A stretch of 64,000 nucleotides of DNA. It comes from Longispora sp. K20-0274. Its GTDB lineage: Bacteria; Actinomycetota; Actinomycetes; Mycobacteriales; Micromonosporaceae. The notes under the pieces were generated by a model that was not told the DNA's origin, ran no database searches, and saw nothing but the letters and a program-made list of their open reading frames with translations. The DNA lies in contig NZ_CP139447.1 of assembly GCF_047121295.1 (NCBI RefSeq), positions 3,298,665-3,362,664 of the forward strand. Reading direction: 5' to 3'. The translations under genes and the position numbers were made by a program. This document shows, piece after piece, positions 33,063 to 57,942 of this stretch; position 1 is the stretch's first letter, and each line of letters begins with the position of its first letter.

Positions 33063-33473
33063 TCAGGCGCAGTGCAGCCGGGCCCTCACCGCGGCGGGCA
33101 TCTGGGGGAGTTCGGGCAGGTCACACATCGACCCGGTGCCCAGGGTGAGGCCCTGCCACACGCCGCCGACCCGGTGCGTGACGAACGTCGCACCGCCCAC
33201 TTCGGAGTCCAGGGAGCCGACCGCCCACCCGGCCTCGCACACCAGGCTGCCGGCCCGCACGGACGCGCTGGCCGGGAGTCCGCCGTTGACGACCCTCGCG
33301 GCGGCCAGGACCTCGGCGTCGGTCGGGCACGCCGCCGGGCTCGGGCTCGCGGCGGCCGTCGTCGGAGCGTTCGTCGGGGCGGTGACCGGGGTGTTCGGCC
33401 CGCAGCCGGTGCCGCCGGCGAGGATCAGGAGGACCGGCACGAGGGAAATCAGGGGCCTACGCATGATCAACAT
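33063..33473 (-). CDS. Small lipoprotein of unknown function
   Basis: MLIMRRPLISLVPVLLILAGGTGC gives a lipobox LAGG-TGC. Upstream in-frame sequence is low-complexity, so the start was trimmed to the ATG at 33473. Confidence 0.45.
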   Translation of the reverse strand: MLIMRRPLISLVPVLLILAGGTGCGPNTPVTAPTNAPTTAAASPSPAACPTDAEVLAAARVVNGGLPASASVRAGSLVCEAGWAVGSLDSEVGGATFVTHRVGGVWQGLTLGTGSMCDLPELPQMPAAVRARLHCA

Positions 33474-33821: not shown

Positions 33822-34274
33822 ATGGCCGTGGATCGCCGGATGATCGGACTGCGCATCAAGGAACGCCGCGTCCGTCTCGGCATGCTCCAGCAGGACGTCG
33901 CCGACGCCGCGGGCGTGCACCTGCGGGCCTTCGGGAAGATCGAGCGCGGTGAGGTGACGCCCCACCTGCACACCTGTTCGCTGTTGGACGGAGCGCTGCA
34001 GCTGACGCCCGGCTCCCTGGCCGGCGCGTACCAGACGGGGGCCGAACTCGTACCGCTCTCACTGCCGGACCAGCTGCCGGCGGACTGGAGGGACGGCGCC
34101 CCCGACCTGACGTCCGTCGTCCACGATCCGGCCGCCGCCGCCGAACTGCGGGACTGGTTCGAGGACGCGATGCGGCAGATGTACGAACGGGGCCGCCAGG
34201 CCCAGCGCGCGGACCAGGAGGCGCGGGAGGCCCGGGCCGCGACGATCGGCAGGACGAGAGGCCGGGGCGCGTGA
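33822..34274 (+). CDS. XRE-family helix-turn-helix transcriptional regulator
   Basis: IGLRIKERRVRLGMLQQDVADAAGVHLRAFGKIERGE matches the HTH_XRE pattern. Confidence 0.65.
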   Translation: MAVDRRMIGLRIKERRVRLGMLQQDVADAAGVHLRAFGKIERGEVTPHLHTCSLLDGALQLTPGSLAGAYQTGAELVPLSLPDQLPADWRDGAPDLTSVVHDPAAAAELRDWFEDAMRQMYERGRQAQRADQEAREARAATIGRTRGRGA

Positions 34275-35194
34275 GGCCTGGCCGTGGAGACGCGGGCGGC
34301 ACGAGTTGGCACGTTGTCCGGTTCGTCACAGGACTTTCGTCCTGCGTGGGGTTCGCCGTGCTCGGCTGGCAGGCCCGCAGCCGACCGGACCTGTTGCCCT
34401 GGTACATCCGCCAGCACGCCATGTCGGTGGTGGCCGCCCTCACCATCACCGCGCTGGTGTGCCACCTCCAGCTCCGGTTGGCCCGGTTCACCTCGGGCGG
34501 GGTGGAACAGGCCGCGAACCGGGTGATCCGTCTGGCGGCCCAGTGCGCGTCGGCCGGCGTCGTTCTGCAGGCTGTCCTCACCGTGTACATGGCCAGCTCG
34601 GGCGGGGCGCTGCGGATCGAGTACCACGAGCTCCTGCTCGGCGCGTCGAACTGTCTCACCCTGGCGGGCGTCGTCGTGGTCTACGGCCTGTCGAGGGCCG
34701 TGCGCGTGTTGCGGACGCCGGTCGGACAGGTCCCCGACCAGGCCGTGGTCACGGCGGCGCACCTTCGACTCCGTCGCCTCAGCCGGGTCGCGGCGGCCGC
34801 CGCGGTCGCGGGATTCGGCGGGGTCGTGTATCTCGACGTGTACCAGCCCGACGCCGTGTCGCAGTTCTGGCACCAGAGCCTGTGCAGCCTGGCGGCCATG
34901 CCCCTGATCATCGCCGTGATCAGCCACGAGGAGGCCCGCGGCCCGGACCTCGTCCGCGCGCGGCGCTGCGTCACCGTCGGTGGCACGCTCTGGGGGACGC
35001 TCCTCGCGGCGCAGGTGGTCAGCGGCGGGGCCGTCGGGTTCCGCTGGCAGGAGTACCTGCTGTGCGCGGGCAGCGCCGTGACCATCGCCGGACTGCTGCT
35101 GAGATTTGGTATCTACCATATGTCCAGAATGGTCGCTGCACTGCGGGAGATGCAGCGGCGTATCGCCGAGCACACGACGAGATCGGAACGGTGA
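34271..35194 (+). CDS. Integral membrane protein of unknown function
   Basis: Multiple hydrophobic helices. The GTG start overlaps the XRE gene stop, and the stop lies 2 nt before the P450 start. Confidence 0.5.
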   Translation: MRPGRGDAGGTSWHVVRFVTGLSSCVGFAVLGWQARSRPDLLPWYIRQHAMSVVAALTITALVCHLQLRLARFTSGGVEQAANRVIRLAAQCASAGVVLQAVLTVYMASSGGALRIEYHELLLGASNCLTLAGVVVVYGLSRAVRVLRTPVGQVPDQAVVTAAHLRLRRLSRVAAAAAVAGFGGVVYLDVYQPDAVSQFWHQSLCSLAAMPLIIAVISHEEARGPDLVRARRCVTVGGTLWGTLLAAQVVSGGAVGFRWQEYLLCAGSAVTIAGLLLRFGIYHMSRMVAALREMQRRIAEHTTRSER

Positions 35195-35196
35195 CC

Positions 35197-36564
35197 ATGA
35201 CGCTCGACGAACGCGGCACCATCGCCACGCAACAACCCCGCAGGATCAGGATCGTGCGCAACCTGGGGCAACTCAGGAAGCGGCCGGCGGACTTCCTCGA
35301 CGACGTGGGCCGCCAGCTGCCCAACGGCGAGATCGGCGAGATCCGGCTGGGCCCGAAACGGGCGGTCCTGGTGACGGATCCCGACCACCTCCAGCAGGTG
35401 TTCGTGACCGAGCGCGACAGGTACAGCCGGGAGGGCATGATCTGGCGCCCGATGAGCAGGCTCACGGGAACGGGGCTGGCGGGCGACGGCGCGCCGTGGA
35501 AGCGGAGCCGCAGTCTGATGGCGCCGCTGTTCCAGCGCAGCAGGATCGAGTCCCTCATGGTCGTGATGTCCCGGGCGATCGACGAGGCGGTCAACGACCT
35601 GGATGTCCGGATGGCCGGGGAGGAGTCCGTCGACGGGCTCAAGGAGATGACCCGGATCGTCCACACGGCGCTGATCAGAGCCTTCTTCGGCGACCGGATC
35701 TCCCTGTCGGACGCCGCCCGTCTGGGGGCCGCGACCGTGACGGCCTTCGGGGCGCTCGGTGCCCGCCTCCTCATGCCGTTCGTGCCGAACGCGGTGCCCA
35801 TGCCCGGCGACCGGCGGTTCATGAGGGCCGTGCGGGTCGTCGACGAGATCATGCTGCCGCTGGTCCGCGAGTCCATGGTCCCGGGCGCCGACGGCGAGGA
35901 CATCGTGACCTGGCTGGCACAGGACAACCACAAGATCGACGTCCCGCTGACCGAGCAGGAGATCCGCGACAACGTCGTCGCGTTGTTCGTCGGGGGTACG
36001 GAGACCACGTCCCTGGCGCTCACCTGGCTGTGGACCCGCCTCGCCGACGAACCCGCCGTCGCCGGGCGGTTGGCCGAGGAGGTCGGCCGGGTGGTCGGCT
36101 CGGATGTTCCGGGTCCCCGACATCTCGCGGGCCTGGACTACGTCCGCAGGACCCTCCAGGAGACGCTGCGACTACACCCCGGCAGCTTCGTCCTTCCCCG
36201 GTCCGTGGTCGCGCACGACACGATCGGCGGGGTCGCCGTCCGCCCGGGAGACATGGTCATCGTCAGTCCCTACCTGACCCACCGGCTGGCCCACCTGTGG
36301 CCCGACGCCCGGACCTTCGACCCGGACCGGTTCCTTCCCGAGCGCTCGGAGGGCCGACACAAGCTCGCGTACTTCCCGTTCGGGGCCGGTGGGCACAAGT
36401 GCATCGGCGAGCACCTCTACGTCGTGGAGGCCCAGATGCTCGCCGCCAGGATCCTGCGCGACTACACGCCGGAGGTGCTCAACGCCCGCGACGTGTGGCC
36501 ACGCCCCGACATCACGCTGCCACCGAACGTGCCGGTGCGACTGCGACTGACCCGGCGGACGTAG
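35197..36564 (+). CDS. Cytochrome P450 monooxygenase
   Basis: Heme-binding loop FPFGAGGHKCIG, K-helix ETLR motif (ETLRLHP), and I-helix AGTETT-like segment (VGGTETTS). Confidence 0.9.
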   Translation: MTLDERGTIATQQPRRIRIVRNLGQLRKRPADFLDDVGRQLPNGEIGEIRLGPKRAVLVTDPDHLQQVFVTERDRYSREGMIWRPMSRLTGTGLAGDGAPWKRSRSLMAPLFQRSRIESLMVVMSRAIDEAVNDLDVRMAGEESVDGLKEMTRIVHTALIRAFFGDRISLSDAARLGAATVTAFGALGARLLMPFVPNAVPMPGDRRFMRAVRVVDEIMLPLVRESMVPGADGEDIVTWLAQDNHKIDVPLTEQEIRDNVVALFVGGTETTSLALTWLWTRLADEPAVAGRLAEEVGRVVGSDVPGPRHLAGLDYVRRTLQETLRLHPGSFVLPRSVVAHDTIGGVAVRPGDMVIVSPYLTHRLAHLWPDARTFDPDRFLPERSEGRHKLAYFPFGAGGHKCIGEHLYVVEAQMLAARILRDYTPEVLNARDVWPRPDITLPPNVPVRLRLTRRT

Positions 36565-36620
36565 ACGCGTCCGGTGAAGCGGGTGCGACGCCCTTGGTGG
36601 AGCATCCGTCGTGGTCACAG

Positions 36621-36656
36621 CCTCGGTCGGTCAGGACGCGTCCTGACCGACCGAGG
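36621..36656. terminator. Perfect 18-bp inverted repeat (CCTCGGTCGGTCAGGACG|CGTCCTGACCGACCGAGG) between the convergent P450 and terpene cyclase genes; candidate bidirectional terminator
   Basis: The palindrome is visible directly in the sequence, 55 nt after the P450 stop and 85 nt after the cyclase stop. Confidence 0.45.
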
Positions 36657-36740
36657 ACCCGCCCGGACCTGCCACGCGGGGCTGGACGGCGTCGATCATG
36701 CTGACGGCCCACGACGGCTGGGCAGAGGCCGCCGTGGGAG

Positions 36741-38165
36741 CTACGCCATCCTCAACGCGGCCAGCCGGGCGGCCCGGATCACGGTGATCGGCGCGTACAG
36801 GTCCTTGGCGTGCCACAGCGCCGGGTAGGCCGCCGGGTCGTCGTTGCCGACCAGGAACGCACGGCCGCGCGCGATCAGGGCTGCGTGCGCGGGATCGCCG
36901 GCCCGCAGCAGCACCTGCACCGCGTACGCGGTCTCCTCCACGGTGCCCGTCCACCGGCCCCACGAGCCGTCGGGGCGCTGGGTGGCGGCGACCCAGCGCG
37001 CGGCGGCGGCCACGGCCGGCCCGGCGCCGGGGCCGCCGTACGCGGCGAGGGCCAGCGCGCAGCACGCCGTCGCGTAGTACGGGGACGCGTGCCACTTGTC
37101 CAGCCAGCTGCCGTCGGCGTCCTGGGTGGCCAGCAGCCAGTCCACGACCATCGACCGGGGCCCGCCGAACCGGGGGTCCTCGTCGGGCCGGGCGGCCAGG
37201 TAGACGCCCAGCGCCTCCAGCACGTGCGCGTTGGTGCTGATCGAGGGGTTGCGCTCGTCGGGGAAGCAGGTGAAGTAGCCGTCGGTGCGGTAGTCCAGCA
37301 GGCTGTCGGGCCGGCGGACCCTGCCGTGCGAGGTGAGCGCGTGCAGCACGGCGGCGGTGTCGTCGGCGTCGCAGGGCAGGCCGGGGGCCGCCGGCGCGCC
37401 GTACTCGCCGAGCGCGGCGTCGAGGCTGTCGAGCATGCCCTCCGGTACCAGATAGGGATCCGAGGTCAGGGCCAGGCTGTTGAGGACCCAGGCCCGCTCG
37501 AAGAACGTGATGGGGGTGACGCCCGGCACCGGGCCGCCGGCCGACGCCTGGATCGCGCGCAGGTAGCCGGCCGAGGGCTCGTCGGGGTCGCCGTCGTCGC
37601 CGAGCCAGGCGGCCGTGGCGGCGGGGGAGCAGGCCACCGCGCCGTCGGCGGGTTCGGCGCCACCCTCGCGGGCGGCGGCGCCGAGGACCTCCAGGGAGGC
37701 CCACAGCTTCACGGGTACCCGGCTGCCCCGGTCGACCCGGTCACGCAGCTTCAGCAGCGGCTTCTCGTCGAAGCCGCGCGGCAGGCCGAGGTGGTCGGGC
37801 CGGGGGAGGCGCGCGTTGATCTGGCCGGTCAGCGCCGGCACGACGAGCTCGACCGCGATGGTGTCCGGCAGCGCGCGGCCGCCGGCCAGCCAGGACCGCA
37901 GCCAGGCCAGGCCGCGCCCGGCGGCGGCGGGGTGACCGGCGGCGAAGAGGCTCTCGGTGGCGCTGAGGGTGGGCACGTACCCGTAGCCGTCGGCCTCGCC
38001 CCAGGAGCCGTCCGGGGCCTGCGTCCGGAGCAGGAAGTCCACTCTGGCCTGGTGGCCGGTGAGCCGGGGGAGCAGCGAGACGAGCCGGGACGTGTCGTAG
38101 ACCGAGGTGGACACCTGACTACCGTCGGTCATCACGGTGGCCAGCAGGGTGTCGATTTCCTTCAT
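36741..38165 (-). CDS. Class II (type B) terpene cyclase, copalyl/terpentedienyl-diphosphate-synthase-like
   Basis: DxDD protonation motif (LPCDADDTAAV) plus three QW repeats (LLRTQAPDGSWG, LLATQDADGSWL, VAATQRPDGSWG). The ~475-aa size fits bacterial class II diterpene cyclases. Confidence 0.8.
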   Translation of the reverse strand: MKEIDTLLATVMTDGSQVSTSVYDTSRLVSLLPRLTGHQARVDFLLRTQAPDGSWGEADGYGYVPTLSATESLFAAGHPAAAGRGLAWLRSWLAGGRALPDTIAVELVVPALTGQINARLPRPDHLGLPRGFDEKPLLKLRDRVDRGSRVPVKLWASLEVLGAAAREGGAEPADGAVACSPAATAAWLGDDGDPDEPSAGYLRAIQASAGGPVPGVTPITFFERAWVLNSLALTSDPYLVPEGMLDSLDAALGEYGAPAAPGLPCDADDTAAVLHALTSHGRVRRPDSLLDYRTDGYFTCFPDERNPSISTNAHVLEALGVYLAARPDEDPRFGGPRSMVVDWLLATQDADGSWLDKWHASPYYATACCALALAAYGGPGAGPAVAAAARWVAATQRPDGSWGRWTGTVEETAYAVQVLLRAGDPAHAALIARGRAFLVGNDDPAAYPALWHAKDLYAPITVIRAARLAALRMA

Positions 38166-38523: not shown

Positions 38524-40845
38524 ATGAAGTTCCGCAGTACTCGGGTGCGGACCAAGGTCGTGGCTCTGCTGCTCTCCCTCTTCGCACTGTGGGCGTTCGC
38601 CGCAGGTGTGACGTTGCGCGAGGGCCTCGGCCTCCTCGACCTCAGTACGCTCAGCACACAGCTGGGCACGCCCGCTGACGCGTTGGTCTCAGAGCTCCAA
38701 CAGGAGCGCAGGCTGTCCAGCGTGTACCTCGGCAACGCCGCTCCGGACAGCAGGTCAGCCCTGACCGCGCAGCGGACGCGGACCGATCAGGCCCGCAACA
38801 CGTTCACGCGGCTGGCCGGTGGCAGCGACGTGCGGAGCGTCGCCAACGACGCGCTGCGGCAGCGGCTCGACGAGGCGTTCCGCAGCCTCGACAGCCTGAA
38901 GTCCACCCGGGACGCGATCGACGCGGGGAGCATCGAGCGGGGCAAGGCGACCGCGGCCTTCGGTGACATCATCGCCGCCGGCTTCCGGATCTACGGCTCG
39001 ATGGCCAGCCTGGACGACCAGGAGATCGCCAAGGAGTCCCGGACCCTCATCGCCCTCAGCCACGCCCGTGAGGTGCTGAGCCAGGAGGACGCCCTGCTCG
39101 CCGGCGTGATCGCCGCGGGCAAGTTCGGCGCGGGCGAGCACGAGCAGTTCGTGGCTTTCAACGGCACCCAGCGCTTCCTGTACTCCGAGGCCGTCGCCGA
39201 GCTGCCCGCCGCGGACCGCGCCAAGTACGAGCACCTGACCGGCCTGAGCGCCCTTCGCATCCTGGAGGACCGGGTCATCGAGAAGGGGCGGGTGGGTGCC
39301 GCGCCCCCCGTGGACACCGCCGGCTGGAAGACCGCCACGGAGCAGGCCCTGTCCGACCTGCGGGCCCTGGAGCTGGAAGCCACGAAGGGCACCGTCGAGC
39401 GCTCCAAGCCGGCCGCCATGTGGGTCCTCATCCGGCTGGCCCTCGCCGGCGGCCTCGGCCTGATCGCCGTCATCGCCTCCATCGTCATCTCCATCACCAC
39501 CGCCCGGACCCTGGCGGCCCAGCTCACCCGGCTCCGCGAGGCCGCCTGGGAGCTGTCCACCACCCGGCTGCCGGGCGTGGTCGAGCGGCTCCGGCGCGGC
39601 GAGGAGGTGGACGTCTCCGTCGAGGCCCCGCCGCTGCCGTCCGGCGAGGACGAGATCGGCGCGCTCAGCCGGGCGTTCAACGCCGTGCAGCAGACCGCCA
39701 TCGAGACGGCCGTCGAGCAGGCGGCGCTGCGTCAGGGTGTCCGCGACGTGTTCCTCAGCCTCGCCCGCCGCACCCAGGCCCTCGTGCACCGCCAGCTCAA
39801 GCTCCTCGACGTGATGGAGCGGCGCGAGAAGAACAGCCCCGAGGAGCTGGCCGACCTGTTCCGGGTCGACCACCTGGCCACCCGGATGCGGCGCAACGCC
39901 GAGAACCTGATCGTCCTGTCGGGCGCCACCGCCGGCCGTGGCTGGCGCAACCCGGTCCCGCTGATGGACGTCGTGCGGGGCGCCCTCGCCGAGGTCGAGG
40001 ACTACGAGCGGGTCCGGGTGCTGCCCATCGGCCCGGTCGCCCTCACCGGCCGCGCGGTCGGCGACGTGATCCACCTGCTCGCCGAGCTGATCGAGAACGC
40101 CACCGCCTACTCCCCGCCGGACACCCCGGTGCAGGTCACCGGCCAGCGGGTCGCCAACGGTTTCGTCATCGAGGTCGAGGACCGTGGCCTGGGGGTCAGC
40201 CCCGAGGACATGGAAGCGGCCAACGAGCGGATGAAGAACCCGCCGGAGTTCAAGTTGTCCGGCAGCGCCCACCTCGGGCTGTACGTGGTCGGCAAGCTGG
40301 CCGGCCGGCACGACATCCAGGTCCGGCTCCGCGACTCGCCGTACGGCGGGACGACGGCGATCGTGCTGGTCCCCACGTCCCTCGTGGTGGACGGGCCCGA
40401 CGAGCCGGTCGCAGCGCCGCCGTCCGTGACCGACCCCGTGCGGATCCTGCCCGGGCCGCGCCCGGTGCGGACCCCGCACCGGACCCTGGAGGTCGTCCCC
40501 GCCCCGCGCGGGCCGATCCTGCCCGACCGGGGTCCCGAGCCGGACATCGATGTCCACCAGCAGCCCGACACCCCCGAATCCCAGGGAGGCGAGCCGGAGG
40601 TGCCAGAGTCCACACCGTCCGGGCTGCCCCGCCGGGTCCGCCAGGCCAGCCTGGCCGCCCCGCTGCGCGAGCAACCCGCGCCCGTCGCGACTCCGCCAGC
40701 GGAGCCGCCGGGCCGAGCGCCCGAAGAGATCCGCTCGATGATCGGCTCCTACCAACGGGCCACCCGCAGGGGTCGGCGCGAGGCGGACCAGGCGACATCG
40801 GAGTCCCCGGTCCCGCCCGCCGAGGTTGACCAGCCCACCAGTTAG
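38524..40845 (+). CDS. cvnA: Conservon sensor-kinase-like membrane protein (CvnA; nitrate/nitrite-sensing-like domain + HAMP + HATPase)
   Basis: TM-anchored N-terminal sensing region, a HAMP-like linker, a C-terminal HATPase (IENATAYSPP...VEDRGLGVS), and a Pro-rich tail. It is followed by cvnB, cvnC and cvnD in the canonical order. Confidence 0.8.
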   Translation: MKFRSTRVRTKVVALLLSLFALWAFAAGVTLREGLGLLDLSTLSTQLGTPADALVSELQQERRLSSVYLGNAAPDSRSALTAQRTRTDQARNTFTRLAGGSDVRSVANDALRQRLDEAFRSLDSLKSTRDAIDAGSIERGKATAAFGDIIAAGFRIYGSMASLDDQEIAKESRTLIALSHAREVLSQEDALLAGVIAAGKFGAGEHEQFVAFNGTQRFLYSEAVAELPAADRAKYEHLTGLSALRILEDRVIEKGRVGAAPPVDTAGWKTATEQALSDLRALELEATKGTVERSKPAAMWVLIRLALAGGLGLIAVIASIVISITTARTLAAQLTRLREAAWELSTTRLPGVVERLRRGEEVDVSVEAPPLPSGEDEIGALSRAFNAVQQTAIETAVEQAALRQGVRDVFLSLARRTQALVHRQLKLLDVMERREKNSPEELADLFRVDHLATRMRRNAENLIVLSGATAGRGWRNPVPLMDVVRGALAEVEDYERVRVLPIGPVALTGRAVGDVIHLLAELIENATAYSPPDTPVQVTGQRVANGFVIEVEDRGLGVSPEDMEAANERMKNPPEFKLSGSAHLGLYVVGKLAGRHDIQVRLRDSPYGGTTAIVLVPTSLVVDGPDEPVAAPPSVTDPVRILPGPRPVRTPHRTLEVVPAPRGPILPDRGPEPDIDVHQQPDTPESQGGEPEVPESTPSGLPRRVRQASLAAPLREQPAPVATPPAEPPGRAPEEIRSMIGSYQRATRRGRREADQATSESPVPPAEVDQPTS

Positions 40846-40885
40846 AACCACGCCCCGGGACCACCGGGGCCTCCTGGGGAGAGAC

Positions 40886-41305
40886 ATGGCACAGAAGACG
40901 AGTACGGTGCGGGATCTCGCCTGGCTGCTCGATGACCTGGTGGACCGGGTCGCGCATGCCCGGCAGGCGGCGGTGCTGTCGGCCGACGGCCTGCTGATCG
41001 CGGCGTCCAGTGGGCTCGACCGCGAGGACGCCGACCACCTCTCGGCCGTCGCGGCCGGGTTCCAGAGCCTGGCCCGGGGCGCCGGCCGGCACTTCGGTGG
41101 CGGCTCGGTGCGCCAGACCATCATCGAGATGGACTCGGCCTTCCTGTTCGTGATCGCCGCCGGGCACGGGGCGTGCCTGGCGGTCCTCGGGTCGGAGGAC
41201 GCCGACATCGGCCTCATCGCGTACGAGATGGCGATGCTCGTCGCCCGGGTCGGGCAGTACCTGGCCACCCCGTCGCGTACCTCCGTCATGGCTGCCGAGG
41301 TCTGA
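40886..41305 (+). CDS. cvnB: Roadblock/LC7 domain protein (CvnB)
   Basis: ~140 aa with the typical Roadblock pattern (...AAVLSADGLLIAAS...FLFVIAAGHGACLAVLG...). GGGGAGAG RBS lies upstream. Confidence 0.8.
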   Translation: MAQKTSTVRDLAWLLDDLVDRVAHARQAAVLSADGLLIAASSGLDREDADHLSAVAAGFQSLARGAGRHFGGGSVRQTIIEMDSAFLFVIAAGHGACLAVLGSEDADIGLIAYEMAMLVARVGQYLATPSRTSVMAAEV

Positions 41306-41307
41306 CC

Positions 41308-41661
41308 ATGAACGAATGGCTGGACGAGGATGCCGGGCCGGTCGTCCGCCCGTACGCCATGACCCGTGGCCGGACCCGCCCCTCCACGGGCGAGTTCGAC
41401 CTGATCGCCCTCGTCGTCTCCACCGGTGCGACGGCCGCCGGCCTCGAGCCGGAGCACACGGCGATCCTGGGCCTGTGCGACGCGCCCCTGTCGGTGGCCG
41501 AGATCTCGGCGCACCTGGACCTGCCGGTCGGCATCATCCGGGTGTTCCTGGGCGACCTGCTCACCGCCGGGCTGATCCAGGCCCGTGCGCCGCAGCCGGC
41601 GGCCGAGCTGCCGAGCAGGCGGACCCTCCTGGCGGTGATCGATGGTCTCCGTGCCCTCTGA
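41308..41661 (+). CDS. cvnC: DUF742 protein (CvnC)
   Basis: VRPYAMTRGRTRP...FDLIALV...LSVAEISAHLDLPVGIIRVFLGDLL is the characteristic DUF742 pattern. It starts 3 nt after the cvnB stop. Confidence 0.75.
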   Translation: MNEWLDEDAGPVVRPYAMTRGRTRPSTGEFDLIALVVSTGATAAGLEPEHTAILGLCDAPLSVAEISAHLDLPVGIIRVFLGDLLTAGLIQARAPQPAAELPSRRTLLAVIDGLRAL

Positions 41662-42223
41662 CGCCACCACGCTGCCCACCGCGATCAAGATCCTGGTCGC
41701 GGGCGGGTTCGGCGCGGGCAAGACGACCCTCGTCGGCGCGGTCAGCGAGATCAAGCCGCTGCGCACCGAGGAGACCATCACCGAGGAGAGCGTCGGCATC
41801 GACGACCTGTCCGGGGTGGAACGCAAGGAGACCACGACGGTCGCCATGGACTTCGGCCGGATCACGATCAACCCGGAGCTGGTGCTGTACCTGTTCGGCA
41901 CCCCCGGCCAGGACCGGTTCTGGTTCGTCTGGGACGAGCTCGCGCTCGGCGCCGTCGGTGCCGTCGTGCTGGCCGACACCCGCCGGCTGCCCGGCTGCTT
42001 CCCGTCGATCGACTACTTCGAACGCCGGGGCACCCCGTTCATCGTCGCCGTGAACTGCTTCGACGGCGCCGACCGGCACGACCCGGCCGAGGTGCGCGCG
42101 GCGCTGGACCTGGACCCGGAGGTGCCGGTCGTGCTGTGCGACGCCCGGGTCCGCGCGTCCAGCAAGGAGGTCCTGATCACGCTGGTCGAGCACGTGGTGA
42201 ACTCCACCCCGGCCTACGCGTAG
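41642..42223 (+). CDS. cvnD: ATP/GTP-binding protein, small Ras-like GTPase (CvnD)
   Basis: P-loop GGFGAGKTT, DTPGQ, and NCFD (NKxD-like) motifs. Overlaps the cvnC end. Confidence 0.8.
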   Translation: MVSVPSDATTLPTAIKILVAGGFGAGKTTLVGAVSEIKPLRTEETITEESVGIDDLSGVERKETTTVAMDFGRITINPELVLYLFGTPGQDRFWFVWDELALGAVGAVVLADTRRLPGCFPSIDYFERRGTPFIVAVNCFDGADRHDPAEVRAALDLDPEVPVVLCDARVRASSKEVLITLVEHVVNSTPAYA

Positions 42224-48631: not shown

Positions 48632-49852
48632 TCAGGTGCCGGCGGTCGCGGGCCGGGCGACGCCGATGCGGACCAGGTCCGTGACCAGCTCGGTCGCATC
48701 GGCGGCGTCGAGTCCGGGCACGAGGTCGGCGGCACACCACGGTTCCGGGTCGTCGGCGGTCAGCAGTGCCGCAACGACGGCGGCGGCCGGCTCCTCGAAC
48801 TCGACGGTGAACGCGCCGAGGTGCAGCCGGAGCCCGCCGCCGTCGAGTGCGGTGACCCCGCAGACCGCTTCGGCGACCGTGCGCACCGGGGTGTCCTCGG
48901 CCAGGCCGGGCAGGATCGCCGCGGTGGCGGCCGGGGTGCGCGGTTCGAGGAAGAACCTCCGGTAGGCGTCGGCCATGACCTCGGCGTCGGCGGCCGGATC
49001 GAGGCTGTTCAGGGCCGCGCGGAGCTGCGCGACCGTCGTGGCGACGGCCCTGGCTCGGAGGCGGGGGTCGGCGCAGAATCCCCACGGGACCTCCGCGCGC
49101 AGCTCTTCGACGGCGTCGAGCCGGGCGAGGAGCTGTGTCGCGATCCAGTGGCCGGTCAGCGCGGGGAAGGCCAGACTCAGGTGCAGTGAGTGCTCGTCGG
49201 TGGCGAACCCGTTGTGCACCCAGCCGCGGGGGATCCACAGCGCGTCCCCGACACGGAGCACGGTCTCCAGTTGGGGGGTGCCGTGGCGCAGTCGGGCCCA
49301 ATCCGCGTCGGAGACCCGCTCGGCGCGGAACGGCTGGTGTTCCAGCGGATCGGTGAGCACCGGGGCGTGCACCTGCCACGTCTTACTGCCGGAGGTCTGC
49401 ACGATCAGGACGGCATGCGTGTCGTGGTGGTGGGCGAAGCCCTGGCTGCCGGCCGGGGTGAGGTAGGCGTTCGCGCCGACCGGCAGGCCGGTCTCCCAGC
49501 TCAGGCGGCGGCACAGGTCGCCCACCGGTGGCCAGGTTCGGTGGAGCGACTCCAGCACCACGGTCGAGCCGTCGCGCAACAGGGTGGTGAGCCGGGCCGG
49601 GCGGACCACGTCGGCGAATCCGGGCTGGACAGGTCTGCCCGACCAGGTGTAGGTGCCGCCGGGCACCCGTCGGCCGTCGGTGACCACGCTGACCATCTGC
49701 CGGTGCAGCGACCCGTGGTCGAGCAGCGCGTCGACGTCCGCGAGACAGAACGGCGGCGGGGCCGGCAGCGACCAGATGGCCGGACGCCGGGGCGGAGCGG
49801 CGAGAAAGCCGGCGGGATCGGGTACGAGCCCCGACAGGGCGGTCAGGCGCAT
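48632..49852 (-). CDS. JmjC/cupin-4 family 2-oxoglutarate/Fe(II)-type oxygenase (putative peptide hydroxylase)
   Basis: HxD...H iron facial triad candidates (FAHHHDTHAV ... WVHNGF) in a cupin fold. GAGGAG RBS lies 6 nt upstream. The start overlaps the MFS stop by 10 nt. Confidence 0.7.
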   Translation of the reverse strand: MRLTALSGLVPDPAGFLAAPPRRPAIWSLPAPPPFCLADVDALLDHGSLHRQMVSVVTDGRRVPGGTYTWSGRPVQPGFADVVRPARLTTLLRDGSTVVLESLHRTWPPVGDLCRRLSWETGLPVGANAYLTPAGSQGFAHHHDTHAVLIVQTSGSKTWQVHAPVLTDPLEHQPFRAERVSDADWARLRHGTPQLETVLRVGDALWIPRGWVHNGFATDEHSLHLSLAFPALTGHWIATQLLARLDAVEELRAEVPWGFCADPRLRARAVATTVAQLRAALNSLDPAADAEVMADAYRRFFLEPRTPAATAAILPGLAEDTPVRTVAEAVCGVTALDGGGLRLHLGAFTVEFEEPAAAVVAALLTADDPEPWCAADLVPGLDAADATELVTDLVRIGVARPATAGT

Positions 49853-51087
49853 CGTCTGCTCCTCAGGGGTTGTCCGGCGTGCGCCGGTGCGGGTGCGGTC
49901 AACTGGGCGCGCACGGGACCCACGGTGCAGAGCGCGGCGCACAGGCCCAGACAGGCCGCCATCGTGCCGTAGCCGGCCTGCGGGCCGAACCGTTGCAGCA
50001 GCCAGCCCATGGTGACGAAGGCGAACGGGTAGAGGACGGAGCCGATCAGGGTCATCGAACTCTGGGCGCGGCCCATCAGGTCGTCGGGCACCAGTCGGTA
50101 GGTGTGCGCGGTGAGCGCGATGACGAGGACCGGGCCCATCGCGGACAACAGGGCCAGCCCGACGGCCGTCGGGACCGGGTACGGCGCCACCGCCACGAAT
50201 GTCGTCACGGCGACGGCGCCGACGCCGCTGGTCAGCACGGCGGTGTACGGCCGGTCGGTGACCAGCCGGGGGGCCAGGGCCGCGCCGACCAGTGCTCCGA
50301 CGGAGACCGTGCCGGCCAGTACCCCGATGAGGGTCGGTGTGGTGCCGTGTGCCCGCAGCATCGGCACCAGGCCGAAGAACGCACCGGCGGTGGCGAAGTT
50401 CAGCACCGACGACCAGACGGTGACGACGCGCAGGAACGGCTGACCGGCGACGAACCGCAGGCCGGTGCCGATGTCGGCGAGCATGCCACCGGCCGAACGC
50501 GGCGCCCCGCCGCCGAGGTCGCCGCCGATCCCGGCCACCAGCACCGCGCACGCGACGAACGTCGCCACGTCGAGGACGAAGGGAGCCCACGGCCACAGCG
50601 CGAACAGCGCCCCGCCGATCGCCGGTCCGAGGAGTCCGGCGGCGTAGGTCCGGGTCTCGTTGAGCGACACCGCCCGGGTGAGCTGGTCCGACCCGACCAG
50701 CGCGCGGAGCGCCCCGCCCAGCGACGGGTTGTACACGGAACTGACGAGGCCGTCGAGACCCGCGATCAGGAGCAATGGCCACACCGCGCGCGCCCCGGTG
50801 GCCAGCATGACCGCCGGGCCGGCCCACAGCACCGCCTTGACGAGGTCGACCCGGATCATGACGGTGCGCCGGCGCCACCGGTCGGCGAGGACGCCGGCCG
50901 GCAGCCGGGCCACGTTCAGCACGACGAGCCTGACGGTGGCCAGACCACCGGCCGCGACCGCCGAGCCGGTCAGGTGCAGGAGCAACAGCGGCAGGCAGAT
51001 GTCGCTGATCCGGGAGCCGAGCGCCGACAGCGCCTGGCCCCACCAGAACCGACCGAAGTCGCGGTTGCCCCGCAGCAGGCCGGTCAT
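49843..51087 (-). CDS. MFS transporter (putative exporter)
   Basis: 12-TM major facilitator pattern. The ATG overlaps the stop of the upstream flavoprotein gene as ATGA. Confidence 0.75.
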   Translation of the reverse strand: MTGLLRGNRDFGRFWWGQALSALGSRISDICLPLLLLHLTGSAVAAGGLATVRLVVLNVARLPAGVLADRWRRRTVMIRVDLVKAVLWAGPAVMLATGARAVWPLLLIAGLDGLVSSVYNPSLGGALRALVGSDQLTRAVSLNETRTYAAGLLGPAIGGALFALWPWAPFVLDVATFVACAVLVAGIGGDLGGGAPRSAGGMLADIGTGLRFVAGQPFLRVVTVWSSVLNFATAGAFFGLVPMLRAHGTTPTLIGVLAGTVSVGALVGAALAPRLVTDRPYTAVLTSGVGAVAVTTFVAVAPYPVPTAVGLALLSAMGPVLVIALTAHTYRLVPDDLMGRAQSSMTLIGSVLYPFAFVTMGWLLQRFGPQAGYGTMAACLGLCAALCTVGPVRAQLTAPAPAHAGQPLRSRRCA

Positions 51088-51629
51088 CCGGCTGCCCGCC
51101 ACTGCGCCTCGACGATCTTCGCGGTGCCCGAGGGGCCGGGCATGGCATGGCTGTCGCCGAACTCGCCGTTCCACAGGGTCAGGACGGTGGTCGGTTCCGG
51201 GGAGACCACCACGACCCCGCGCTCCCTCAGGCCGCGCACGGCGGCCTGCGTGGTCCGGGCCCGCCACATCGTCGGGTGCATGTGGGGGAAGAGAACGACC
51301 GGGGCGGGCGTGGCCAGCACGGCCGTGAGCGCGGGCGAGTTGGCCAGCCCCAACGCGGCGGACACCACGAAATTGGCCGTGGCGGGGGCGACGACCAGCA
51401 GCCGGGCGGTGTGCGCGAACGCGACCGGGTTGAATCCGGTCGCGTTCGGCTCGACCACCTCGTCGGCCAGCAATCGGATAGCGGTCGGCTGCACGAACGT
51501 CAGGGCGGCCGAGGTGAGCAGGACGGTGGTGGGCACCGGGAGCCGCCGCCGCCAGGCGGTCAGGTGCGCGGGCAGTTCGAGGGCCGCGCTGGCGCCGGTG
51601 CACACCACCGCCAACCGGTCAGCGGGCAT
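51084..51629 (-). CDS. lanD: HFCD-family flavoprotein, peptidyl-cysteine decarboxylase (LanD/EpiD/MicD-like)
   Basis: Flavoprotein fold (LAVVCTGASAALELP..., VVAPATANFVVSAALGLANS, PAPVVLFPHMHPTMW) typical of homo-oligomeric flavin-containing Cys decarboxylases. The start overlaps the lanKC stop by 11 nt. Confidence 0.75.
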   Translation of the reverse strand: MPADRLAVVCTGASAALELPAHLTAWRRRLPVPTTVLLTSAALTFVQPTAIRLLADEVVEPNATGFNPVAFAHTARLLVVAPATANFVVSAALGLANSPALTAVLATPAPVVLFPHMHPTMWRARTTQAAVRGLRERGVVVVSPEPTTVLTLWNGEFGDSHAMPGPSGTAKIVEAQWRAAG

Positions 51630-54204
51630 GGCCGACCCCGACGCCCGACCAGCCGTACCGCAGGTCCAGGGTCCGACCGCCGGTGGCCAGGCGGCGCAGC
51701 GCCAGGGCGATGCCCGCCGAGCCGGTCGCGAGGTCGCAGCTCAGCCGCAGCAGCCCGTCGCCGGGGAACGCCACGCCGTCGGGTCCGGGTCGGCGCAGCG
51801 CCACGATCTGCCCGACGAGGCCGGCCAGAGCCTCGTCGACGGCCGGGTCGCCGGGCAGCACGTCCCGGCAGTCCAGCAGGAACTCCACCAGGCCGGTCAT
51901 CCCGGAGAACAGCCCCGGATTGACGGTGAACGGCATGGCCACCCCGCGCACGATCGAGCCGAGGGTCGTCGTGAGCCGTTCGTCGCCGGTGACCGCGAGC
52001 CGCCGGGCCACGGCCATGCCGACGCCCGCTCCGCCGCGCAGGAGGTACGGCTCGTACGCCGTGGCCCGCGCGTACGCGCCAAAGCCCAGGCCGCCGTTGC
52101 GCCGGAGCCGGCCGCGTTCGAGGTCGAAGGCCAGCGCCCGGCCGCCGAGTCGCAGCAGGCGGTCGTCGCCGGTCCGCGCGCCCAGTTCGGTGAGGAAGCC
52201 CGACACCCCGGACGATCCGTGCAGGTAGCCGAGCGGGTGCCGCGCGGTGTCCGTGGGCCACCACAGTCCCGTGCCGTCATCCTCGGCCTCGCCGGTCAGC
52301 CGGGCGGCGACCTCCGTGGCCAGGTCCGTCCAGGAGCCGTCGCCGGTCGCGTCGGCCGCCGCGAGCAGGCCGAGCCCGACGCCGGCGCGTCCCGTGGCCA
52401 CCCCGGCCGGTAGCTTGCCGTCGACCGCCCGGCGCGCCGCGTCGCGCAACAGTGCCGTGCCCCGGTCGGTCTCGCCGGCCTCGAGGATGGTGACGGCGAT
52501 GCCCGTGGCGCCGACGTACAGTCCGGCGGGAAGCGCGGGGTGCTCGTCGAGCCGGGCCAGCAGCCAGTCGAGTGCCACCGGATCGGCCACGCCATCGAGG
52601 AGCAGCAGGGCGCGCAGGACGCCGGCGGCTCCGTAGGCCACCGACAGCGGATTCGTGCGGAACAGCTCCGGGTGGGCGGGGAAGAGCCGGTCGGCGCGGT
52701 GGGGGGTCGCCGCCGATCGCAGGTGCCGGACGACCCCGTCGACCAGCTCGGGTGGCGTGGGCGCCGGGCCGTCGTCGGCGGCGACGCCGGGGGCACCGCG
52801 CTCCAGGACGGCCAGCAGGTCCCCGAGCGGGCGGTCCAGCGCGGCGGCGGTGTGCCGCAGGGTGCGCCCGAACACGCCCGGGTCCAGGCCCAGCAGCGCG
52901 TTGCGGGGAACGACGCAGGCCGCCTCGACGGCGGCGACGGAGAACCGCAGGTAGTCGTGGTCCACGCCCCATGCCGGTGAACCGACCTCCGGCGCGAACC
53001 CCAAGGTCCGGGGGTACCCGGCGGGGTCGTCTCCGGCGGGACGGCAAGCCTCGAAGTCGACCAGCCGCACCGTGTCGTCCTCGTCGACGAGGATGTTGGT
53101 GAGGGACAGGTCGCCGTGCACGACGCCATGGTCCGCGCAGGTCCGCACGGCGGCGGCGAGCTGCGTGAGCAGACCGTCGACCCTCCGGTTGTACGCGGCG
53201 ACCGTGTCGCGATCGGTGAATCCGCGCGCGAAGGGGTGGTGCCGCGCCAGCCACACCTGCAGAGTGATCCCGGGGACCAGGCTCTGCACGAGGAACGTGT
53301 GCTCCCACAGCCGGGTGAGCTCCACGGCCGCCGGCGCGACCCCGGTGCCGGCCAGGTCCAGCAGGAAGGCGTGCTCCCGGTGCAGCCGTTCGACCGCGTC
53401 GGACCCGTCGGGGGCGAACGCCGTGTGCGGCCGGGCCTCCTTGAGTACGACGTCGCGACCGTCGGGCCCGGTGGCCAGGTACACCCCGCCGGCTGTGGAG
53501 TGGCGCAGGACGGACCGGACCCGGTACCTGGTCAGCAGGTCACCACCGGTCGGTTCCGTCCCCGGCGGGAAGGGGTCCTCGGTGACCCACGGCGGCAGCG
53601 TGAACCGGGGGGTGCGCGCATCCGTCCACGCGGTCCCGTCCGGGCCGGTCACCGTGGCCGTGACGTGCCCGTCGGCATCGACGCCGGCCGGCCGGCGCAC
53701 CGTGCCGTACCGGTACTGCACCGTGCCGCTGCCCGGGTAGCGCCGGTCGGTCAGGATGTGCGGCCCCGCGAACCCGTCGAGGCGGTGGGCCAGCCGGTCG
53801 GCGAGCTCGCGGGCGTGCCCGACCGAGGTGGGGTACACCGTCACGGCCTTTCCCGCCCCGCCCCTCGACCACCAGCGGCTGAGCTGGGCGACGGCGAGCT
53901 CCGTGGACCGCACGCACTTGAAGCTGAACGGGCCCTCGAGGTACTCGTCGACGACCGCGTCCACCACGGCCAGCACGTCGGCGGGCCGGCAGGACACGTG
54001 CAGTTTCCAGCCGTGCGCCGGCAACTGTGACATGGGCTGGGCCAGGCACCGGACCCAGATCCCCATGGCCGAGACCGCGCCGGTGTCACCGAGGCGGTCG
54101 CGCACCAGGTCACGCAGGTCGGCGGTGTCGGGCCCGTGGTCGATCCGCTCGTAGTACAGCGGATCGGCGATCGCGTAGGCCCGCAACGATTCGATGATGG
54201 ACAC
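51619..54204 (-). CDS. lanKC: Class III lanthipeptide synthetase LanKC (N-terminal lyase, central Ser/Thr kinase, C-terminal zinc-ligand-free LanC-like cyclase)
   Basis: Lyase-domain N-terminus (...GWKLHVSCRP...) and a kinase core (VVHGDLSLTNILV ... VDFE). The C-terminal cyclase domain has GYLHGSSG and NPGLFSGMTG where LanC/LanM enzymes carry WCHG and CHG, so the Cys-Cys-His zinc site is absent. A GTG at 54204 is preceded by GGAGGA. The track shows a 1294-aa ORF whose first ~430 aa are antisense low-complexity artefact. Confidence 0.85.
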   Translation of the reverse strand: MSIIESLRAYAIADPLYYERIDHGPDTADLRDLVRDRLGDTGAVSAMGIWVRCLAQPMSQLPAHGWKLHVSCRPADVLAVVDAVVDEYLEGPFSFKCVRSTELAVAQLSRWWSRGGAGKAVTVYPTSVGHARELADRLAHRLDGFAGPHILTDRRYPGSGTVQYRYGTVRRPAGVDADGHVTATVTGPDGTAWTDARTPRFTLPPWVTEDPFPPGTEPTGGDLLTRYRVRSVLRHSTAGGVYLATGPDGRDVVLKEARPHTAFAPDGSDAVERLHREHAFLLDLAGTGVAPAAVELTRLWEHTFLVQSLVPGITLQVWLARHHPFARGFTDRDTVAAYNRRVDGLLTQLAAAVRTCADHGVVHGDLSLTNILVDEDDTVRLVDFEACRPAGDDPAGYPRTLGFAPEVGSPAWGVDHDYLRFSVAAVEAACVVPRNALLGLDPGVFGRTLRHTAAALDRPLGDLLAVLERGAPGVAADDGPAPTPPELVDGVVRHLRSAATPHRADRLFPAHPELFRTNPLSVAYGAAGVLRALLLLDGVADPVALDWLLARLDEHPALPAGLYVGATGIAVTILEAGETDRGTALLRDAARRAVDGKLPAGVATGRAGVGLGLLAAADATGDGSWTDLATEVAARLTGEAEDDGTGLWWPTDTARHPLGYLHGSSGVSGFLTELGARTGDDRLLRLGGRALAFDLERGRLRRNGGLGFGAYARATAYEPYLLRGGAGVGMAVARRLAVTGDERLTTTLGSIVRGVAMPFTVNPGLFSGMTGLVEFLLDCRDVLPGDPAVDEALAGLVGQIVALRRPGPDGVAFPGDGLLRLSCDLATGSAGIALALRRLATGGRTLDLRYGWSGVGVGHAR

Positions 54205-54221
54205 GCTTCCTCCCCTGGGGT

Positions 54222-54246
54222 GGGGCCCGGAGCGGATCCGGGCCCC
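54222..54246 (-). promoter_or_regulatory. Stem-loop (10-bp GC stem GGGGCCCGGA/TCCGGGCCCC, 5-nt loop) between precursor gene and lanKC; candidate attenuator/processing site
   Basis: Perfect inverted repeat seen in the 55-nt spacer between the precursor stop and the lanKC start. No U-tract follows it. Confidence 0.4.
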
Positions 54247-54259
54247 GTGAGCGGTCGGA

Positions 54260-54358
54260 CTAGCAGCCGTAGCTGACGCCGCTGCCGTCGGTGTCGGGCG
54301 AGACGTACTCGGCCGTCTCGTCGTTCTCGATGACCTGCAGGTCCAGAACCTCTGCCAT
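54260..54358 (-). CDS. lanA: Class III lanthipeptide precursor peptide, 32 aa: MAEVLDLQVIENDETAEYVSPDTDGSGVSYGC
   Basis: This ORF is absent from the supplied track because it is shorter than 60 aa. AAGGAG RBS lies 6 nt upstream of the ATG. The leader carries the class III (I/L)(L/F)(D/E)LQ recognition motif as VLDLQ. The core ends in S-x-x-S-x-x-C with a C-terminal Cys, a labionin/avionin-type motif. It lies immediately upstream of lanKC on the same strand. Confidence 0.75.
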   Translation of the reverse strand: MAEVLDLQVIENDETAEYVSPDTDGSGVSYGC

Positions 54359-54436
54359 GACGATCTCCTTCGGTGATGTCGGGAGCCGAGGTGTTCGGCC
54401 CCGGCGGACTCGGGCTCGCCGAGCCACGGACAACAG

Positions 54437-54467
54437 CTCACCAGCGGATATCGACCCGCCGCTATGG
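54437..54467 (-). promoter_or_regulatory. Candidate sigma70-like promoter for the precursor operon (TTGCCG - 18 nt - CGATAT on minus strand)
   Basis: Hexamer-like elements seen ~90 nt upstream of the precursor ATG in the divergent intergenic region. Weak, unverified. Confidence 0.2.
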
Positions 54468-54550
54468 GTATCGGCAATGCGGGGGTCCGGCCCTCGGCGC
54501 CGGGTGGCGGCGGTGACCCGCCGACCCGGGAATCTGGGTGCTGAGCACGC

Positions 54551-57673: not shown

Positions 57674-57867
57674 CCGACACAGATCTGATCAGGTCCTGGA
57701 AGGACCCGGAGTCCCGCGACGAGCCGGCCGCCGACCATCCGGTGGGGGAGATCCGACCCAGGATCGACCTGCGCGCGGGCTCCCGAGTCCTGGCGCTGGT
57801 CGGCATGGCCGGCGTCCTGTTCGCGTCGCTGCCGGGCACCGAGACGACGACCTCGCTGACCGGGTGA
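57670..57867 (+). CDS. 65-aa peptide with class II (LanM-type) leader motif but no cysteine: MTDTDLIRSWKDPESRDEPAADHPVGEIRPRIDLRAGSRVLALVGMAGVLFASLPGTETTTSLTG
   Basis: The ATG overlaps the lanM stop (ATGA) and has AAGGAG 5 nt upstream. The N-terminus carries the (I/L)xxWK(D/N)PxxR leader motif seen in mersacidin/lichenicidin-alpha-type LanA peptides. The C-terminal half is hydrophobic with a TETTTS tail and contains no Cys. Confidence 0.5.
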   Translation: MTDTDLIRSWKDPESRDEPAADHPVGEIRPRIDLRAGSRVLALVGMAGVLFASLPGTETTTSLTG

Positions 57868-57942
57868 GCCGCCGCCGGCCTCCGGGGCCCGCCCGGGCGG
57901 CGGCCCATAGATACTGATCATCATGGACGGTAATCTCGGACC

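Follow-up and report, generated by a model that had tools for sequence, protein, structure and literature searches.

Here we describe a class II diterpene cyclase gene and its surroundings in a 64-kb stretch of the chromosome of the actinobacterium Longispora sp. K20-0274 (contig NZ_CP139447.1, positions 3,298,665 to 3,362,664; hereafter the window). The cyclase gene lies between a cytochrome P450 (P450) gene, with which it converges, and a complete conservon, cvnABCD (38524-42223), which stands directly upstream of it and is divergently transcribed. The window has a GC content of about 73% and gives a view of 64 kb of a 7.58-Mb contig, and 57 genes were called in it by a third-position GC criterion. 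The features concerned are the following (coordinates are those of the window):

33822..34274, plus strand: XRE-family helix-turn-helix regulator, 150 aa; its stop codon overlaps the start of the membrane protein gene
34271..35194, plus strand: membrane protein with about seven hydrophobic segments and no Pfam family; its stop codon lies 2 nt before the P450 start
35197..36564, plus strand: cytochrome P450, 455 aa, CYP170A1-like (Pfam p450, 4e-62)
36621..36656, no strand: perfect 36-nt palindrome, its own reverse complement, within the convergent spacer
36741..38165, minus strand: class II diterpene cyclase, 474 aa, beta-gamma didomain (Pfam, phmmer against the PDB, motifs)
38166 to about 38523, no strand: divergent cyclase/cvnA intergenic and promoter region, 55% GC against about 73% in the genome
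38524..40845, plus strand: cvnA, histidine-kinase-like sensor with NIT, HAMP and HATPase_c domains (Pfam)
40907..41305, plus strand: cvnB, Roadblock/LC7 protein (Robl_LC7; Pfam)
41308..41661, plus strand: cvnC, DUF742 protein (Pfam)
41642..42223, plus strand: cvnD, small Ras-like GTPase (ATP_bind_1; Pfam)

The original prediction for this locus had singled out a 474-aa minus-strand protein with a DxDD motif (CDADDTA) and three QW repeats, and both the translation and the motif positions agree with it: the protein has one DxDD motif only (DADD at residue 266, within CDADDTA) and three QxxDGSW repeats, at residues 49, 348 and 396. It carries the Pfam domains SQHop_cyclase_C/N. When searched against the PDB with phmmer, it matched over its full length (residues 7-473, E=3e-143) to PtmT2 (5BP8), the ent-copalyl diphosphate (ent-CPP) synthase of Streptomyces platensis from the platensimycin/platencin pathway, with which it shares 52-56% identity; the other solved relatives were Tpn2 (7XKX, 1e-60) and Rv3377c (6VPT, 2e-34). 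In total, 2164 homologues were found, among them PtmT2 at 52% identity and a protein of Longispora sp. K20-0274 (Micromonosporaceae) that is identical in sequence. The catalytic residues, whose roles in this family have been defined by mutagenesis (PMC9814783, PMC9585517), are retained as D101xxxxE106, D266-A-D268-D269, H314, K357-W358 and Y457, with D266, D268 and H314 invariant across 23 homologues and the diphosphate/Mg2+ elements present as D101-TIAV-E106 and D356-K357-W358. The window cyclase thus resembles PtmT2 in its beta-gamma didomain build, its DxDD acid, activating His, (D/E)KW Lys and DxxxxE motif, and in a C-terminal LWHxKDxY motif region that includes the Tyr. A squalene-hopene cyclase (SHC) was ruled out as the identity of the protein. 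The SHC models gave scores far under their cut-offs (57 bits against 431 for TIGR01507 and 51 against 323 for TIGR01787) and aligned to residues 309-444 only, SHC structures matched over only about 130 residues, and the 474 aa of the protein compare with about 630 aa of an SHC. The low scores and partial match mean that the protein is not an SHC fragment; the outcome that had been named as fatal to the prediction, nearest homologues that are SHC fragments, was therefore not what we found, the nearest being the full-length match to PtmT2. Judged by its sequence, the window protein is a class II diterpene cyclase of the actinobacterial CPP-synthase/PtmT2 family, and as an enzyme it is a new member of a well-known family and ordinary in kind.

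The surroundings of the cyclase were compared across 84 distinct loci, drawn from the 80 best species-level genome loci and four Longispora loci besides the window. Genes were called in each locus, neighbouring proteins were clustered and recurrent families were annotated by Pfam, and every locus was re-scored in six frames with family hidden Markov models (HMMs). The recurrent neighbours are a P450, a polyprenyl synthase (polyprenyl_synt), three class I terpene synthase subfamilies (Terpene_syn_C_2) carrying DDxxD and NDxxSxxxD motifs, a UbiA-type enzyme (UbiA) and the four conservon genes. Nearly all relatives have a class I or UbiA-type partner together with an orthologue of the window P450, and often a synthase of the geranylgeranyl diphosphate (GGPP) type. 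Three architectures could be distinguished, and these track the cyclase tree (all trees here were built by neighbour-joining only). In type A (38 loci; Nonomuraea, Microbispora, Herbidospora, Planotetraspora, Sphaerimonospora, Acrocarpospora, Actinomadura and Micromonospora) the P450, class I, cyclase and cvnA to cvnD genes follow one another in one direction, preceded in part of the loci by a GGPP synthase (GGPPS) gene in the opposite orientation. In type B (15 loci; Dactylosporangium, Micromonosporaceae metagenome-assembled genomes (MAGs), Longispora and one Amycolatopsis in which UbiA replaces class I) the conservon diverges from the cyclase gene, on which a P450 gene, preceded by a class I gene, converges. 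In type C (31 loci) no conservon stands beside the cyclase; 23 of these loci, mostly from Pseudonocardiaceae, have the cyclase, P450 and UbiA genes in one direction, usually followed by a convergent Methyltransf_19 gene, and the rest have a class I synthase (two loci) or neither partner (six, some on short contigs).

The main conserved feature of the neighbourhood is one that the original prediction had mentioned as an aside: the conservon does adjoin the cyclase, and its linkage to the cyclase, not a P450 of the kind found in conservons, is what recurs. An NIT-type conservon lies directly beside the cyclase in 53 of the 84 loci (38 co-directional and 15 divergent), in three gene orders. The same association was recovered from the other side. 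Of the 120 best homologues of the window CvnA, at least 20 are encoded on a contig that also has a cyclase or class I hit, some of them with locus tags adjacent to these hits, and when five high-ranking CvnA homologues from outside the cyclase lists were sampled, four (Phytohabitans, Actinomadura scrupuli, Actinoallomurus and a soil metagenome) lay in clusters of the form P450, class I, class II and cvnABCD. The fifth, from Planosporangium, has only a P450 of the window orthogroup (40% identity) beside the conservon. When the CvnD proteins beside the cyclase were set against those of second conservons at the same loci, identity was 65-80% throughout, with three outgroups only, two of which are recent tandem copies. 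Without functional coupling, a conservon beside the cyclase in 53 of 84 loci, under three different arrangements of the genes, would be difficult to account for, so that the gene-order evidence implies a functional link between conservon and cyclase. The description of the cyclase as an orphan with unclear cluster boundaries stands insofar as no partner occurs in the 64 kb, but the boundaries are now defined by comparative genomics, which indicates that the conserved module is conservon, cyclase and P450, to which class I and GGPPS genes are added in relatives.

The convergent P450 of the original prediction proved to be a genuine one (Pfam as listed), facing the cyclase gene across a spacer of 176 bp, with the heme loop FGAGGHKCIG and the motifs ETLR and GGTET. 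Its best solved relative is CYP170A1 (3DBG, E=3.5e-46), and CYP170A1 also gives its best NCBIfam model, followed by the pentalenene oxygenase PtlI; as the score of 208 bits is far under the cut-off of 700, it is no CYP170A1 orthologue. Members of its orthogroup accompany the cyclase in more than 50 species. In the P450 tree the window protein groups with cyclase-adjacent P450s of Dactylosporangium, Nonomuraea, Microbispora and others, and the window, L. urticae and L. albida P450s are placed together with the core P450 found in clusters of types A and B, which identifies the window P450 as the ancestral partner of the cyclase although the two genes are convergent. Going by this co-occurrence, the P450 is the conserved tailoring oxygenase of the cyclase pathway, and its substrate is presumably a diterpenoid. 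In such a role it would resemble the terpene-oxidising P450s CYP170A1 (the albaflavenone monooxygenase of S. coelicolor) and PtlI, differing from CYP170A1 in the diterpenoid nature of its presumed substrate. We also considered and rejected a CvnE-type accessory P450. The cyclase gene separates the window P450 from the conservon, which places this P450 outside the cvn operon, and CvnE and CvnF have been reported only with CvnA proteins that have no NIT domain (PMC13343842), while the window CvnA has one (6e-46). The window locus accordingly differs from CvnE-type conservons in having a CYP170-like P450 that does not form a fifth cvn gene, and an NIT-bearing CvnA.

Two positions that determine the product set the window cyclase apart from PtmT2 (residue numbers were carried across PtmT2, Tpn2 and Rv3377c by counting positions through the structure-match alignments). 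Position 453, equivalent to PtmT2 D502, Tpn2 G485 and Rv3377c A475, is Ala, and so is position 156, equivalent to Tpn2 H180, H263 of the Arabidopsis CPP synthase AtCPS and Rv3377c F171; PtmT2 has the His in WHTLE and Asp502 in LWHDKDIY. In the actinobacterial family the D502 position is Asp in 84.1% or Gly in 13.3%, and the H180 position is His in 95.6% (Stowell et al., PMC9814783). In Tpn2, the exchange G485D turned a clerodane former into mainly a labdane former, and H180F/V abolished activity (PMC9814783). Both Ala residues occur in 14 of 14 cyclases of the Micromonosporaceae clade (type B), and the remaining cyclases of the set (types A and C and PtmT2) have His together with Asp, or occasionally Gly in place of Asp. 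The class I partner is kept at nine of the 14 double-Ala loci, and these complete clusters point to a functional subfamily and not to decay; by this comparison the double-Ala enzymes are presumably functional. The window cyclase does not carry the His and Asp signature of ent-CPP synthases, and since A156 and A453 differ from PtmT2, CPP cannot be assumed as its product. By analogy with the characterised enzymes, the product is probably other than plain ent-CPP. The original assignment as CPP/terpentedienyl-PP-synthase-like thus survives for the fold, but not for the product, for which two determining residues differ from PtmT2.

The two other characterised relatives bear on this point from different sides. 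Tpn2 (Cyc1), the terpentedienyl diphosphate or clerodane synthase, belongs to the same actinobacterial family and likewise has no Asp at the switch position (G485), so that its G485D switch from clerodane to labdane gives a precedent for predicting a rearranged product of the window cyclase. It differs, however, in keeping His180 and in having a cluster with the class I synthase Tpn3, a GGPPS, two P450s and mevalonate-pathway genes, with no conservon reported. The halimadienyl/tuberculosinyl diphosphate synthase of M. tuberculosis (Rv3377c, also MtHPS) has Ala at the switch (A475, as window A453), the base Tyr four residues on (Y479, as window Y457; PMC9814783, PMC9585517) and, where the window protein has A156, a residue other than His (F171), and it too has no canonical class I partner. 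It is nevertheless distant (E=2e-34), uses DxDT, is paired with Rv3378c instead of a P450 and has no conservon link.

For the absence of partner enzymes from the window, two lines of evidence agree with the original prediction that neither GGPPS nor a class I synthase is present within 64 kb. None of the 57 called genes gave a Pfam match to a class I terpene synthase, UbiA or polyprenyl synthase, and six-frame HMMs built from the partners of relatives (three class I families, UbiA and polyprenyl_synt) likewise gave no hit in the window at E<1e-3, remnants included. The window therefore departs from a canonical labdane-related cluster, which has a second cyclase and GGPPS in the locus. It departs as well from the large PtmT2 cluster, which includes the class I synthase PtmT3, the UbiA-type PtmT1 and the GGPPS PtmT4; the 64 kb contain no class I, UbiA-type or GGPPS gene and have a conservon attached to the cyclase instead. 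Being an orphan is by itself not novel, as 67 of 342 biosynthetic gene clusters (BGCs) of the family have no second cyclase nearby (Stowell et al., PMC9814783).

These figures could also be read in terms of a split pathway, in which the cyclase makes ent-CPP or a close isomer, the class I and GGPPS genes lie elsewhere in the chromosome and the conservon is a mere neighbouring regulator. The identity of about 55% to the ent-CPP synthase PtmT2 would fit such a pathway, as would the small share of the contig that was viewed (64 kb of 7.58 Mb) and the 67 of 342 BGCs, by which unlinked or absent partners are not rare. We nonetheless regard it as unlikely. The conservon is fixed beside the cyclase in 53 of 84 loci and the reverse search with CvnA recovers the cluster in four of five cases, A156 and A453 are unlike every CPP-type relative with His and Asp, and a search of 5.8 billion proteins with a profile of the class I family of the type B clade returned 25 proteins, none of them from Longispora (the search relies on shared 5-residue words, and other class I families fall outside it).

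The reduced state of the locus is common to the genus. In all five Longispora species (the window strain and four others) the locus has the conservon, the cyclase and one P450, and no class I, UbiA or GGPPS gene was found within 10 kb at any of the five loci. Downstream of the cyclase the loci have a mosaic slot with four different contents, and in a blastn comparison of L. fulva with the window, homology ends exactly at the cyclase stop codon and restarts 3.2 kb further on. In the window the slot holds the convergent 455-aa P450 preceded by the XRE and membrane protein genes, in L. urticae a convergent 451-aa P450 alone, in L. fulva a co-directional 398-aa P450, and in Longispora sp. NPDC051575 a co-directional 403-aa P450 with a convergent XRE/membrane pair; the P450s of about 400 aa belong to a different family (30% identity over 133 aa). 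Set against the relatives, the cyclase and P450 pair is the reduced core of a widespread cluster of P450, class I and class II genes, with or without GGPPS, joined to cvnABCD.

Throughout these species the cyclase reading frame is full-length and has all catalytic residues, at a divergence that reaches 66% amino acid identity (dS at least 0.7). The cyclase dN/dS in Longispora (NG86, a crude estimate at 73% GC) is 0.28-0.40, equal to that of cvnA, and some flanking genes have higher values of 0.44-0.55. The cyclase is intact and under purifying selection in Longispora. This bears on the idea of a decaying remnant, a cyclase left functionless by the loss of class I and kept only by chance or because transcription reads through from the promoter region of the conservon. 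Such a remnant would agree with the loss of class I and GGPPS at all Longispora loci, with the unstable slot by the cyclase (four contents across five species), with Planosporangium, which has the P450 and conservon only and no cyclase, and with Ala at the equivalent of H180, where substitutions inactivated Tpn2 (PMC9814783). It is difficult to reconcile with an open reading frame and catalytic residues kept over the divergence given above, with a dN/dS that equals that of cvnA and is below that of some flanking genes, or with the occurrence of A156 and A453 in nine relatives with a complete cluster, which speaks against degeneration, and we consider it highly improbable.

The chemistry at the locus could run as follows. 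GGPP would be bound through the DxxxxE/Mg2+ site and Lys357, and Asp268 of the DADD motif, activated by His314, would protonate the terminal double bond to give a bicyclic prenyl diphosphate. With both candidate quenching bases replaced by Ala, the carbocation would more likely rearrange to a halimane- or clerodane-type diphosphate, or capture water, than be quenched to plain ent-CPP, a rearranged cation being quenched by Y457 or a DxDD aspartate. The absence of class I and GGPPS from the Longispora locus means that GGPP would have to be supplied by a synthase encoded at another place in the genome. A general phosphatase could hydrolyse the diphosphate product before its oxidation by the P450, or the product could be passed to an unlinked enzyme; E. 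coli phosphatases remove the diphosphate from such products (PMC9814783). In the simplest case the conservon would control expression of the terpenoid genes, for which the Cvn8-lanthipeptide system gives a precedent (PMC13343842), or else it might respond to the terpenoid. Conservons such as Cvn8 (PMC13343842, PMC8510531) consist of the same cvnABCD unit as that of the window and provide a precedent both for regulation of a neighbouring cluster and for P450s beside conservons.

A substrate other than GGPP, such as farnesyl diphosphate (FPP, with a drimane-type product), geranylfarnesyl diphosphate (GFPP) or an epoxy or aromatic-prenyl compound, would explain why neither GGPPS nor a class I enzyme is needed, and would be in line with the lack of a prenyl-diphosphate synthase in the window and with the unusual active-site residues. 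The nearest characterised relatives PtmT2, Tpn2 and Rv3377c, however, all use GGPP (PMC9814783), relatives of the same clade adjoin polyprenyl and class I synthases typical of diterpene clusters, and the diphosphate-binding K357 and DxxxxE are kept, which makes another substrate quite improbable. As a whole, the locus is best explained, from its sequence and that of its relatives, as an active PtmT2-family cyclase with a CYP170-like P450 partner in a reduced cluster coupled to a conservon, and we consider this explanation probable, with appreciable room for doubt.

Several observations weigh against it. A156 sits where H180F/V killed activity in Tpn2, and the inactivity of those variants means that the window enzyme might be inactive or act differently. 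As 64 kb of a 7.6-Mb genome were viewed, a class I synthase may lie elsewhere. For the comparison, 80 loci were taken by their closeness to the query and not as a random sample of the family, adjacency constitutes linkage and not mechanism, and no conservon link is known for PtmT2 and other characterised members. In L. fulva and NPDC051575 an unrelated P450 has taken the place of the core P450, so that the pairing of cyclase and P450 is not obligatory. Finally, a dN/dS of about 0.3 speaks for moderate constraint only.

The literature searched did not describe a link between conservons and terpene or diterpene genes, although absence there is no proof of novelty. The 2026 survey of conservon accessory genes (PMC13343842), which covers only CvnE (P450) and CvnF (GAF), does not have a terpene cyclase as a conservon partner, and no conservon linkage was found in the text supplements of the Tpn2 genome-neighbourhood study (PMC9814783). 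The conservon-coupled diterpene cluster, together with its reduced form, looks like a new variant. In the Micromonosporaceae clade it combines with a rare double substitution at both positions that steer the labdane versus clerodane/halimane outcome, which makes the double-Ala clade a good target for a new bacterial class II product and for better prediction of product from sequence. The Longispora loci, in turn, are natural minimal versions with a cyclase and one P450 from two alternative families, and could show the fate of a class II product when no class I enzyme is present.

We know of no established input of a conservon and of no ligand assigned to the NIT domain of a CvnA sensor. In Micromonosporaceae, Streptosporangiaceae, Thermomonosporaceae and at least one Amycolatopsis the cluster stays with a single CvnA subfamily, and the conservon-tied operon is a concrete and testable candidate for a signal or a regulated output. 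A bolder proposal is that the diterpenoid made by the P450, the class II and, where present, the class I enzyme is the cognate signal or dedicated output of the NIT-type conservon, that Longispora has a minimal ligand-making version and that the double-Ala cyclases form a new product class; we put this forward tentatively, as something that may be so but that we would rather doubt. If true, bacteria would have a terpenoid 'hormone' connected to G-protein-like signalling, for which a double-Ala cyclase and one P450 would suffice to make the ligand in Longispora.

Among the remaining features, the XRE and membrane protein genes overlap by 4 nt and the gap to the P450 is 2 nt, all on the plus strand, and this close packing is in keeping with the operon of XRE regulator, membrane protein and P450 that had been proposed; as a unit, however, it is not conserved across Longispora. 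The pair occurs without that P450 in Longispora sp. NPDC051575 (81% identity for the XRE protein and 52% for the membrane protein, whose only homologue found this is); neither L. urticae nor L. fulva has the pair. On this distribution the pair is a separate lineage-specific module. Two other readings of the membrane protein were considered and dropped: it has no BLAST or HMM similarity to the DUF6545 membrane proteins encoded ahead of class I-P450 operons in MAG relatives, and as a non-canonical synthase in place of class I it finds no support, the gene being common only to the window and NPDC051575.

The convergent spacer between the P450 and cyclase genes has a folding energy of -113.7 kcal/mol (z=-4.0), which none of 200 shuffled sequences equalled, and its palindrome is likely to be a bidirectional terminator; an intrinsic-terminator scan of the spacer gave no match because the scan demands a T-run. 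On the other side of the cyclase, the divergent region contains several blocks of 15-50 nt that are nearly identical in four Longispora species, such as ATCCATTATGGACC and CAGAATGAGACTTAGGTCAC (both given as they read on the minus strand of the window, which codes for the cyclase). It also has two sigma70-like matches oriented towards cvnA. These sequence features are candidate operator or promoter elements.

Further observations concern the related loci. Type A cyclases have DxDT and not DxDD in 37 of 38 cases (for example at loci L012, L019 and L029; the other has DxDS), DxDT being the motif variant of Rv3377c (PMC9585517), and Arg in place of the diphosphate-binding Lys357 in 37 of 38. A predicted protein of 485 aa from an ENA metagenome (P0138) carries Terpene_syn_C_2 and p450 domains in a single chain, apparently the class I synthase of the clade naturally fused to a P450. 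The Pseudonocardiaceae type C loci (such as L016-L018, L067, L070 and L079) share a highly conserved set of cyclase, P450, UbiA and Methyltransf_19 genes, and Amycolatopsis anabasis (L083) has this set together with a divergent conservon. In Planosporangium mesophilum (L085, 6285-15235) a P450 is divergent to a cvnA of the closest type, with no cyclase, and a partial tandem duplication of conservon genes follows; this locus looks like a further-reduced stage with conservon and P450 only. Conservon genes flank the diterpene cluster on both sides in Actinomadura scrupuli (L064, with a complete second cvnDCBA set upstream, and L087, with a second NIT-type cvnA at the cut end of the locus), and tandem second conservons lie downstream in Micromonospora (L035 and L059).

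In the window itself, a predicted lipoprotein (131-137 aa, no Pfam family) with a signal peptide and a Cys-rich C-terminal part is encoded at 33063-33473 on the minus strand and also at loci L001, L003 and L004, always at the distal end of the variable slot in close Longispora relatives. On the other side, a lanthipeptide-type cluster at 48632-60870 lies about 6 kb from the conservon; in S. coelicolor the conservon Cvn8 controls an adjacent lanthipeptide cluster (PMC13343842). The window cluster includes a JmjC protein, an MFS transporter, a LanD-like flavoprotein, a LuxR/AAA_16 regulator, a RamC_N+kinase+LanC synthetase of class III/IV type (51619-54204, minus strand) and a LanM-type DUF4135+LanC synthetase (54575-57673, plus strand), directly followed by a 66-aa open reading frame (57670-57867) that is a possible precursor peptide.

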